From assembly GCF_036971445.1 (NCBI RefSeq), contig NC_091469.1, forward strand, positions 157,542,001 to 157,606,000: DNA of 64,000 nt. The letters run 5' to 3'. This DNA is from Narcine bancroftii (lineage: Eukaryota). The stretch's first letter is position 1. Each line of letters starts with the position of its first letter. Under the pieces are notes generated by a model. The model had not been told where the DNA came from. It worked only from the letters and a program-made list of their open reading frames with translations, and ran no database searches. Positions 46,862-50,527 of the stretch are shown one piece after another. Both the position numbers and the translations under genes were made by a program.

Positions 46862-49800
46862 TCACAGGTTCTCAGTCACCTCCATTCGAATCTGTTCCAG
46901 TGTCCGTGTCGGTAGGTCCGTTGCTGCACACTGACTCCAATGATACCACGTCTCGCCTTTTCCTTGTAGTCGAACCGCGTGGGACATCCTCTCCACCACT
47001 CTGTAGGGTCCTGTCCATCTGGGCTCCGACCACTTTCTTTTGATGACCTTTAGCAGAACCCACTCCGCGACTGAAGGTATCGGTGTTTCCCCTTCTCTGT
47101 TGGGACTTGTGACCTGTTGTGAAAAATCTGACACCAGAGCCGTTAGTTTTTCATAATAAAGCTTGCATCCCATTGAGCTTACCTCATTCTTCGTAGTCTG
47201 AATTCCGGCACCCGGTCCTGGAAACTGGTGCCCTGTTTGTAGTTCATATGGAGTAAATCCTGTCACAGAACTTACCGAACTCCTTATTGACATTAATGCC
47301 AGGGGCAACGCATCCACCCAATTTAGTTTGGTCCGTGCCTGTACTTTCCCGATCTTACTTTTTATTGTTTGGTTAATCCTCTCCACTTTCCCTTGGGATT
47401 GCGGATGGTACACCGTTCCAAAGGCATGTTTCAATCCCAACATTGCTTCTACCTCCTGTAGATCATTATTCTTAAAATGACTTCCATTATCAGACCTAAT
47501 TTTTCTAGGAAATCCGTGTCTCGGAATATACTGGTTGATCAGGAATTTACATACCGTCCTTGCATCTCTTTTGGCAGGGATTGCCCTGTGAACACATCTA
47601 CTGCTACTAAGAGGTATCGATAGCCACTTACCCTCTCAATCATGTCCGTATAATCAAGTACGATTTCCTGCCCTGGTAACTTCGGTAGCGGGAACTGACC
47701 TTCATGTGGCTTTACAGTCGCCTTTACATTGAAAGCTATACATACCTCACACTCTCTAATATGGTTCTCCACCATCGCCAGCAGGAAGGGGTGCCACCAA
47801 TGTATCAAGTACCTTATCATCTGCTTCTTTCCACAGTGTGTTAGCCCATGCGCCTCCTCGAGGAGGGGTTTCATGAGTCCAGATGGTAAAACTGGCCTCC
47901 CGTCTATCAATCTCCATAGTCCTTGATCCTTGGTTGCCCCCCTTTCCTCCCATACCATCCTTTCCTGAGGTGATGCCTTTGATTACTTCTACCCTACATG
48001 GTGGTAATAAGTCATGTGCTGTTCTGTCTGCCTGTATCATAATAAACTGAGGGCCGTATCCTGCTGCCCTTTTAGCGGCCATGTCCGCTTCCTGATTTCC
48101 CCGAGCCACCATCGTATCTGTTCTATCATGTCCTTTACATTTAAGAACTGCTAATGCCCTTGGTTTCAGGAGGGCCTCAGCCAGTTTCCTAACATCCTTC
48201 TCGTGTTTAATTGGGGTCATTGCTGCTGTTAAAAACCCACTTCTAATCCATTGACTAAGTTCAACCTGTATTGTCCCTACCACATATGCCGAGTCTGTAT
48301 ATATATTGACCTCCTTCCCTTCTGCCCATTCTAATGCTGCTATCATTCCCTGTAGTTCTGCGAGTTGTGCTCACTCCTTTCCTCTCACTGTCCCTGTAAT
48401 GATTTCTTCAAATCCTCCTGTAGTTTTTCGTACCACCGCATAGGCAGCTTTCAATCCATTTGTGGGGTGTCTGTAACAACACCCATCTGTAAACAAGGTT
48501 TCATCTGGTTCTCTTAAGGGTGTAGCCTGTAAGTCAGGTCTTATTTTAATATCCTTCACTACCCTCTTCTCACAACAGTGTGGTTCTCCCTCTCCCATAT
48601 TGTCTGCCATGTTAATGCCTTCATGGGTAAATGTAACATTTGGAGCATTCAGGATCTTTTCTAGTCTCGTCTGCCTTAGTGAAGTCATTGTAAATGCTGT
48701 CGAGCTCACAAATGCTACAATGCTATGTGTTGTTAATACCGTCAGGCCATGTCCCATTACGATGTGTGCCACCTTTTGTAGAATCTTTGCTACTCCCGCT
48801 GCATGTCTCGTACATGGTGGGTGTCTGTCTTCCGTTGGGTCTCGTGTGATACTCACATACATGAGCACACATCTTCAACCCCCTTTTTTCTGAAAAAGAA
48901 CACCATCAATTGTGTGTGCTTTTTCAGAAACATCCAAAAAGAAAGGTAGTTTATAATTTGGAATCGCCAAATCTGTAGCTGTTGTAAGAGCTTGCTTCAA
49001 TAGAATAAAACTCATCTCAGCCTGTGCAGTCCAATCAAGTGTAGCTCCCAGATTCCTCATCCCCTGCTCATTCACCAAAGTTCGCAGTGGATGTGTCAAC
49101 TCACCATACGATGGGATAAACTGCCTACTATAACCTGACAAACCCAAAAACGAAAATATCTCTTAATGGTTCTGCCAGCGGCAAGCAAAAGAAAGCATTC
49201 GCTAAATCTATGCAAGAGAACCACTTGTGGTTGGGGGTTAAAGCAGTCATGGCAGTATATGGGTTTGGTACTGGAACTGTGGGTGTTCTCACAATACCAT
49301 TGATGCGCCTTAAGTCATGGGCCATCCGATATTTGCCCGTGTCTTGTTTAGGAACAGGTAAAATGGGTGTATTCCAACTAGAACGCGAATGTTCCAACAC
49401 CCCTGAATACATAAGGCCATCAATGGTCTCTGCCAAACCTTCCTCAGCTTCAGGTTTGTGGGGATACTGCATCTGCCAAATAGGGGTGTAATCTGACAGT
49501 TCGAAGGTTATGGGATCAACCTGCTGACAAAAACCCACATCTGCTGGTCCCACTGACCACAGGTTCTCAGGGGCCGAGTCGGGGTGATCCATCTTCTCTC
49601 TACCATGAAAGCGTTCAATCTGTCTATGCTCAAGGAGGACTTGATCATATGTCGGAGACAAAATTCTGTATGCCTGACCAGATGAGGAGAACTGCACTGT
49701 CGGTATTTGGGTGTCAGACCAGTCCCTTAGGGACTTCAAGTTCCGACACATCGGTCCCAAATCTTTTGCCTGATGAGTAGTGCCAATTGCAAGGGTGACA

Positions 49801-50527
49801 TGAGGAATGGCCTCACCTGCCATCTCATACCATTCCAGCTGTTCAGATGTCAGTGCCACCGCAGCGGCCACTCCCTCCTTTCCTACCACTATGTAGTCCG
49901 AATTAATTTCCCATAGCATGCCCTCTACCTCTTCATAAAAGGCATGCTGATATATTTCATCCCCATCCCTATCGTAAAAGAGGGTCATATGGGGGGGATC
50001 CGAGGGAGGGATATACGGGTGTAACGTCTGGATCCACGGCTTCTATTGATTATAAAGCTTTAGCAGCCCCCCCCTTCTGTGGGTCCTCTGGTTCCAACAG
50101 CCCCCAGTAAATGTCAGCCCATTGTCCCTCAGACGCGGATCCTCCAGCTGCCGCCAACAACATCTGAGAACTGGAATGCAGTGTAGTTAATGAACAGTTC
50201 ATAGAATATCCATTTGGAAAGGTGACCTCTATTCCGCTGGGTCCACAAAGGATCGATGCTCCGCACTTGACCAACAGGTCTCTGCCCAAGAGATTGGTAG
50301 GGCACCTGGCTGACAAAATGTATTGATGTGTAAAAGTCTGTCCCGCCACAGAAGTGACTAGTGGTGTAGAAAACGGCAGATTTTCTGGTGTACCCGAGAA
50401 CCCTATCAGCTGGACGCTAGAGGATGATGTTTGCCGTATCCACTAAAAAGGATACTTCCATGTCCGTAACTTTAATCTGCAGGAAAGGGTCTGCCAACCT
50501 AGCCTGCTCGTGGGTGCTCGGGCTCCG
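46862..50527 (-). pseudogene. pol: ERV-C pol (PR, 2H-like insert, partial RT, RNase H, IN)
   Basis: FLVDT, NLLGRDLL, WNTPILPV, IDLANAFF, FTDG, YTDSAY, HHCC zinc finger, YHPQSQGKVER, WTGPY. Several frameshifts and deletions. Confidence 0.9.

Follow-up and report, generated by a model that had tools for sequence, protein, structure and literature searches.

Domains of the 2H phosphoesterase type are no novelty for retroviruses of fish: their presence is already in print (2002/2009), PMC9503650 stating it for fish retroviruses as well as for walleye dermal sarcoma virus (WDSV) with reference to Mazumder 2002, and PMC4977317 noting, with reference to Basta 2009, that epsilon-like fish endogenous retroviruses (ERVs) can encode CNPase; in the available part of the elephant-shark ERV account (PMC4422223) the domain is not mentioned. 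The enzyme that serves as the mechanistic reference is mouse CNPase, for which PMC4643303 describes His309 as activating water and His230 as protonating the 3′-O with 2′-phosphate as a product, the base being sandwiched by Phe235 and Val321 and the ribose held by Tyr168, while mutations of Val321 and Arg307 chiefly raise KM. According to PMC5283653, no 2H enzyme other than CNPase has helix alpha-7, and this helix blocks the side where 2′,5′-oligoadenylate (2-5A) is bound in viral RNase L antagonists. A functional test of a fish-retroviral 2H domain was not found in the literature searched, most subscription papers being outside its coverage. Here we consider ERV-C, a minus-strand element located in 64,000 nucleotides of the Narcine bancroftii genome (NC_091469.1, positions 157,542,001 to 157,606,000; this whole stretch is referred to below as the window), which is a further member of this group of carriers and has the domain between protease (PR) and reverse transcriptase (RT). 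In our estimation the conserved Pol domain, with its predicted CNPase-type site, probably hydrolyses 2′,3′-cyclic phosphates and thereby blunts damage or signals coming from host ribonucleases.

Results

The Motif Pair and Its Conservation

From the protease motif LLGRD to the RT motif (W/F)NTP.LPV there are 100 aa in ERV-A and 100 aa in ERV-B, the two other ERVs described below, whereas in ERV-C the same interval takes 916 nt (~305 codons), that is ~205 codons more, in line with the ~200 extra residues which the original prediction had noticed after the ERV-C protease. A stop-free frame (50042-49128) of the minus strand, on which all features of ERV-C are located, contains two HxT motifs followed by the start of RT. 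The His codon of the first motif, DPPHMTLFY, occupies 49989-49991 and that of the second, AIPHVTLAIGTTHQAKDLG, 49800-49802, the distance between them being 63 codons, so that both the positions and the spacing are as had been described. Counted over all six frames, the window has 192 matches to H-x-[TS]-hydrophobic, among which the ERV-C pair is the only one placed in frame 55-95 residues apart. The domain was found where it had been located (49740..50130), but its predicted extent is somewhat longer, ~175 aa from about 50130 to 49611 (49611..50130), with bounds mapped from the paralog L028 and a break near the N-terminal end. It is preceded by the retroviral aspartyl protease (PF00077 by Pfam; 50170..50527) and followed by fragmented RT, RNase H and integrase (46862..49610). 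The copy present in the window is dead and cannot make the domain. Within the domain, pol is broken by TAG at 50043-50045 and, at the G-run 50067-50074, by a frameshift, both already recognized upstream of the motifs. Beyond these, the protease is interrupted by a gap near 50432, RT has lost a large internal part near 49160, and an in-frame gap is present near 49573.

Altogether 49 database proteins match the domain at 36-96% identity, all named ones originating from sharks, rays or teleosts and the closest (96%) being labelled Narcine bancroftii. In these fish retroviral Pol proteins the first motif retains His in 45/47 and Thr in 47/47 cases, and the second retains both His and Thr/Ser in 49/49. 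With the profile search 448 clusters at 50% identity were obtained; 150 of them are listed, 144 of these being new. Among the 144 further representatives His1 is kept in 110/116 and His2 in 127/135, and of the 105 sequences covering both motifs 88 have the two intact; many of these representatives are likely decayed copies. A pattern scan of IMG/VR gave 23 matches with 0 confirmed.

The catalytic His and Thr belong to the most conserved columns of the alignment, the median column being conserved by 53%, which argues against a non-catalytic domain that would bind host CNP as a decoy or serve as an inert spacer. The idea has some ground in the inhibition of HIV-1 particle formation by host CNP through MA, described in PMC7471995, but surface identity of the domain to CNP is low, and we regard such a role as highly improbable. 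The CNP gene of the host itself is located at G000:C24 72.85-72.86 Mb, and its exon agrees at 100% identity with a protein labelled Narcine bancroftii.

The position of the domain in Pol is fixed as PR-[2H]-RT: with at least 60 flanking residues, protease stands upstream in 86/99 proteins and RT downstream in 101/110, and a Pfam scan of 19 proteins, 14 of them exceptions to this order, revealed Pol domains in 15, an Env domain in 1 and nothing in 3. The domain diverges together with RT. For 47 polyproteins the two trees correlate with Mantel rho 0.82 (0/2000 permutations as high), and 12 of 13 strong splits of the 2H tree, built with FastTree and 1.6x longer than that of RT, are also present in the RT tree with 0 conflicting. 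This agreement points to one capture with subsequent inheritance along with Pol. In the RT tree, which is devoid of named references for SSSV (salmon swim bladder sarcoma virus) and ZFERV (zebrafish endogenous retrovirus), 2H carriers are set apart from ERV-A and ERV-B.

Predicted Fold and Likeness to CNPase

Folding of the unaltered paralog L028 (181 aa, 28-row alignment) resulted in a model with pLDDT 94 and pTM 0.88. Among the matches listed by Foldseek against PDB, 42/42 are CNPase or goldfish RICH (best E 1.9e-7), and the top row in VIA is mouse CNPase 2xmi (Z 16.7, rmsd 3.5, 168 residues), the next values being 8.6 and 8.4, with nearly all rows at Z of at least 5 recognisable as 2H proteins by title. 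Local hhalign of 149 viral rows versus 17 of 28 CNPase homologs gave probability 94% and E 1.4e-7, bringing both His and the alpha-7 helix in register with vertebrate CNPase, the global mode being weak (probability 0.03% and 47%), while the top neighbours in ESM Atlas are the tRNA-ligase cyclic phosphodiesterase (CPDase) family PF08302 (0.96-0.97). These matches agree with the initial call of a 2H phosphoesterase, and judging by the model the domain belongs to the 2H superfamily and to its fish-retroviral family. In the model each His opens a strand (E48-54 and E111-117) and aligns with a catalytic His of CNPase, and from the fold and profile matches the two His are predicted to be adjacent; a 2H fold, motifs conserved among paralogous copies and this adjacency are the three points on which the original prediction had been staked, and none of them was contradicted.

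We also considered whether the motif pair might have come about by coincidence in a decayed ERV, as the poor yield of sequence searches could suggest (one PDB search gave 0 hits, the other 2 at E 0.25-0.6, both unrelated, and Pfam hits are below threshold); conservation, fold (VIA Z 16.7) and profile match (E 1.4e-7) rule this out.

The predicted likeness to CNPase extends to individual residues. Based on conservation and profile alignment, motif 1 (H-M-T, 49983..49991) and motif 2 (H-V-T, 49794..49802) are predicted equivalents of mouse His230/Thr232 and His309/Thr311, and the Tyr at His1+5 (49974..49976) of the base-stacking Phe235, this position being Tyr in 46/47 near homologs and Y or F in 97/119 representatives. 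Right after motif 2 the model has a helix (122-133; 49734..49769) in the place of alpha-7, which includes the near-invariant Gly at His2+15 corresponding to Gly324 (codon 49755-49757; 49/49 near homologs, 121/130 representatives). The equivalent of Pro225 is Pro in 43/46, and the Tyr of DIYWG in the first strand (50107..50109) is the likely counterpart of the ribose-binding Tyr168 (Tyr in 43/43, aromatic in 89/89), its register being taken from the structural range (1-172 on 160-378) and the Y-aromatic-G pattern instead of hhalign. Because CNPase-type residues and alpha-7 are predicted together in the viral domain, the opening of 2′,3′-cyclic phosphates appears to be its most likely chemistry, and a good probability may be ascribed to it. 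So the domain would work like CNPase without being filed as one, since the PR and RT flanks replace those of CNPase and PF05881 stays below the Pfam cut-off; the domain itself is not represented by any model in the present Pfam, hence annotation misses it.

Other activities known within the superfamily should be compared against the same data. Hydrolysis of 2-5A, antagonizing OAS-RNase L in the manner of coronavirus ns2 or rotavirus VP3, is suggested by common superfamily membership, by the structural scores of ns2, VP3 and AKAP18 (Z 6.4-7.2) and by the basic residue at the position of Val321; but CNPase with Z 16.7 stands far above, and the helix following motif 2 corresponds to the one which in CNPase blocks the 2-5A side, according to PMC5283653. 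Besides, most named carriers of the domain are teleosts. Teleosts are not known to possess OAS. The passages of PMC6307210 gave no confirmation of such a loss. The host of ERV-C has two OAS loci (G000:C9 128.71-128.77 Mb), so 2-5A could represent a selective pressure here; on the whole we find this activity quite unlikely. For degradation of cyclic dinucleotides (cGAMP), known for phage Acb1 and poxvirus cGAMP-PDE, the scores (Acb1 Z 7.9, penguinpox cGAMP-PDE Z 6.4; in BFVD, Acb1 appears at E no better than 6e-3) fall only in the shared-fold range, far under CNPase, and with the equivalent of alpha-7 the site would be narrower, which leaves this substrate with a very small probability. In VIA the individual values for the remaining enzymes are 7.2 for mouse hepatitis virus (MHV) ns2, 6.8 for AKAP18 and 6.8 / 6.4 for rotavirus VP3. 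Thus, from the roles initially proposed for the domain, the one dealing with cyclic phosphates fits the predicted site, while destruction of 2-5A or cGAMP is disfavoured by alpha-7.

Host-Genome Copies and Selection

The search for 2H copies in the host genome returned 1672 candidates, 150 of which were scored and turned out to be 94-100% identical. By hand count, open frames of 1376 codons are present in 14/150 and of 382 codons in 23/150. Pairwise counts for 39 of 42 copies, picked by 2H similarity, gave pN/pS 0.28 (0.18-0.42) for the domain, compared with 0.21 for PR (37 copies) and 0.40 for RT (24 copies), and for distinct stop-free copies the three values are 0.27, 0.21 and 0.38, respectively. 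These ratios indicate that the domain is under purifying selection among host-genome copies.

The 3′ ends of 12 copies were compared with that of the window, where only a 95-codon remnant of env is left (46468..46752, minus strand): the same deletion was found in 9, a long env region in 2, and 1 was unscorable. Since most copies examined (9/12) share the deletion, the ERV-C family spread largely after the loss of env. In the nine env-deleted copies the 2H pN/pS is 0.35 (0.18-0.69). A deletion subfamily is seen in six examined copies (L028, L029 and L043-L046; 6/6), where RT has lost the same internal piece and PR and 2H remain in a frame of 382 codons; these copies likely form a non-autonomous lineage whose amplification took place in trans. 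When the host genome was searched with a divergent query, the 12 loci fetched contained only relatives of 84-100% identity, with no second family shown.

Presumed Synthesis and Release of the Domain

The gag-pro junction of ERV-C has a stop in the context UGACGG (50525..50530, minus strand), sharing UGA with SSSV and ZFERV, for which UGAAGA and UGACGA are given in PMC13517186. At the boundary of PR and 2H the sequence Q-M-L-L (50155..50166) is a likely protease cleavage site with Gln at P2, the residue described at this position for WDSV protease sites in PMC3185560. A Q-hydrophobic-hydrophobic motif is present in the PR/2H linker of 35/37 near homologs against 44/432 background windows. Behind the domain it is rare (9/44 near, 1/56 distant), and release from RT is for this reason doubtful. 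The supposition that the domain is processed as an accessory enzyme is therefore supported for the PR side and finds no conserved motif on the side of RT.

A replication job with the same chemistry may also be considered, where the domain tethered to RT restores 3′-OH ends of the primer tRNA or of a nicked genome. Its fixed place with RT next in 101/110 proteins, the lack of a conserved protease-type motif after it, the persistence of selection in env-deleted copies and the rescue of yeast tRNA-ligase CPDase by CNPase are all compatible with such repair. On the other hand, replication proceeds without the domain in ERV-A, ERV-B and most retroviruses, ERV-C has no kinase or ligase partner detectable by Pfam, and the matches in walleye viruses are labelled Env, not Pol. 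Because in the latter viruses the domain is apparently not attached to RT, primer repair is less favoured than clearing of cyclic-phosphate ends and nucleotides produced by host RNases, and taken separately it seems unlikely.

The Domain in Walleye Viruses

The best structural match in BFVD is Q2VF30 (E 9.5e-17, TM 0.90, 33% identity), unnamed there, which we take to be the SSSV polyprotein. It is followed by Q9WHI8 of walleye epidermal hyperplasia virus 1 (WEHV1; E 3.4e-10) and A4GTG3 of WDSV (E 2.1e-8), both labelled as envelope polyproteins; the three hits cover 174-177 columns with TM 0.68-0.90. In PMC3185748 the WDSV Env is described as having a cytoplasmic loop of ~170 residues with helices 850-874 and 1045-1069 on either side, a size close to that of the domain, which was matched over 175 columns. 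Taken together, the labels and the loop size hint at Env, and not Pol, as the location of the domain in walleye viruses. The search aimed at WDSV Env and non-fish hosts gave 4 Pol-type proteins only, the two named ones being from catfish.

Surroundings of the Domain in the Window

Three ERVs are nested in the minus strand of window region 41442-64000: ERV-A (52594-60799) is inserted inside ERV-C, and ERV-C at the start of the pro gene of ERV-B. The long terminal repeats (LTRs) of ERV-C are located at 61180..61949 (5′) and 45648..46419 (3′), 757 of 769 aligned bases being identical, and its primer-binding site at 61159..61176 presumably corresponds to tRNA-Trp. ERV-A has LTRs 52594-53282 / 60111-60799 (687/689 identical) and open gag and pol frames, with no long env frame in the open-frame list; its interval between pol and 3′ LTR contains 60-nt tandem repeats (54295-54654), and a related LTR (78%) lies at 62026-62724. 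Another LTR-like pair, 38290-38751 / 41442-41903 (96% identical), flanks RT frames at 38695-40838 that are similar to other dispersed repeats in the window. Two minus-strand frames, 19321-20208 and 23327-24061, have immunoglobulin V-set domains, which suggests a host immune-receptor cluster near the ERVs.

Discussion

Provided that the predicted site is functional, the domain would be made as a part of Gag-Pol via UGA readthrough, then packaged, cut from PR at the site with Gln at P2, and would probably stay attached to the RT N-terminus. Its substrates would be RNA ends cut by nucleases and cyclic nucleotides, converted into products with 2′-phosphate and 3′-OH: His2 would activate water, His1 would donate a proton to the departing 3′-O, and alpha-7 would by its N-terminus admit water alone, as in mouse CNPase. 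In the cell this should blunt the damage or signals originating from host ribonucleases.

Several observations weigh against this proposal. Identity of the domain to CNPase is only 13-18%, and the Pfam hits obtained for 28 members are all sub-threshold, 18 of them to PF13563, 5 to PF02834 and only 1 to PF05881 (CNPase) at E 0.049; the Atlas recognition value, 2278, is slightly under the guide of 2300. The position of Val321 is taken by Lys/Arg (45/49) and Arg307 is absent, small or hydrophobic residues standing at His2-2, therefore the pocket differs from that of CNPase. Among distant representatives only 30/73 have the PR-side motif, and a second cleavage site could be provided by the Gln which lies within the last strand in 31/47 near and 23/78 distant sequences. 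The pN/pS of the domain is biased down because the copies were selected by 2H similarity, and the env remnant as a neutral control (4 copies) is too small to be informative. To these the possible pressure of 2-5A in a host with two OAS loci should be added; besides, a 2′-phosphate on the primer might still block RT.

A broader scenario, which we put forward only tentatively, is that an active CNPase-type enzyme was captured once and has been retained at two sites, the RT N-terminus in viruses of the SSSV/ZFERV lineage and the cytoplasmic Env loop of walleye viruses, removing 2′,3′-cyclic phosphates from nuclease-cut RNA; either place would put the enzyme in the particle and in the cytosol. If so, it would be a fourth enzyme of the retroviral core, with counter-defence chemistry distinct from destruction of 2-5A and cGAMP.

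To the published record the analysis of ERV-C adds the Gln-P2 motif confined to the PR side, purifying selection (pN/pS 0.28) and the hint of an Env location in walleye viruses. It also returns to an old loose end, namely the retention of a fourth enzyme in Pol by an entire fish-retroviral clade (448 clusters at 50% identity), and the predicted structure narrows the functional question, 2′-phosphate being the expected product. Should cyclic-phosphate hydrolysis be its true activity, RNA ends of this type would matter in retroviral replication or sensing, with a bearing on why host CNP restricts retroviruses.

Among the systems described, the closest by virus group are the 2H domains of the SSSV/WEHV1/WDSV type, which represent the same domain type; they differ in that the host of ERV-C is a cartilaginous fish, whereas the cited review names ray-finned fish, and in that for WDSV and WEHV1 the label of the entries is envelope polyprotein while the domain of ERV-C resides in Pol. 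Vertebrate CNPase (2xmi, 1woj; RICH 2i3e; PF05881) is alike in predicted fold, motifs, alpha-7 and the equivalents of Tyr168, Pro225, Phe235 and Gly324, but the viral domain is ~40 aa shorter and has neither the PNK-like domain nor the membrane tail. The fungal and phage tRNA-ligase CPDases (PF08302), top neighbours by language model with the same proposed chemistry, differ in their partners, as the retroviral element is without ligase or kinase, and no alignment or E-value backs this link. With MHV ns2 (4z5v), VP3 (4rpt/6o3v), AKAP18 (2vfk), Acb1 (7t27) and the penguinpox enzyme (9bkq) the 2H fold and a virus-borne setting are common, yet these 2-5A and cGAMP enzymes reach only Z 6.4-7.9, and it is the viral model that has the alpha-7 helix.

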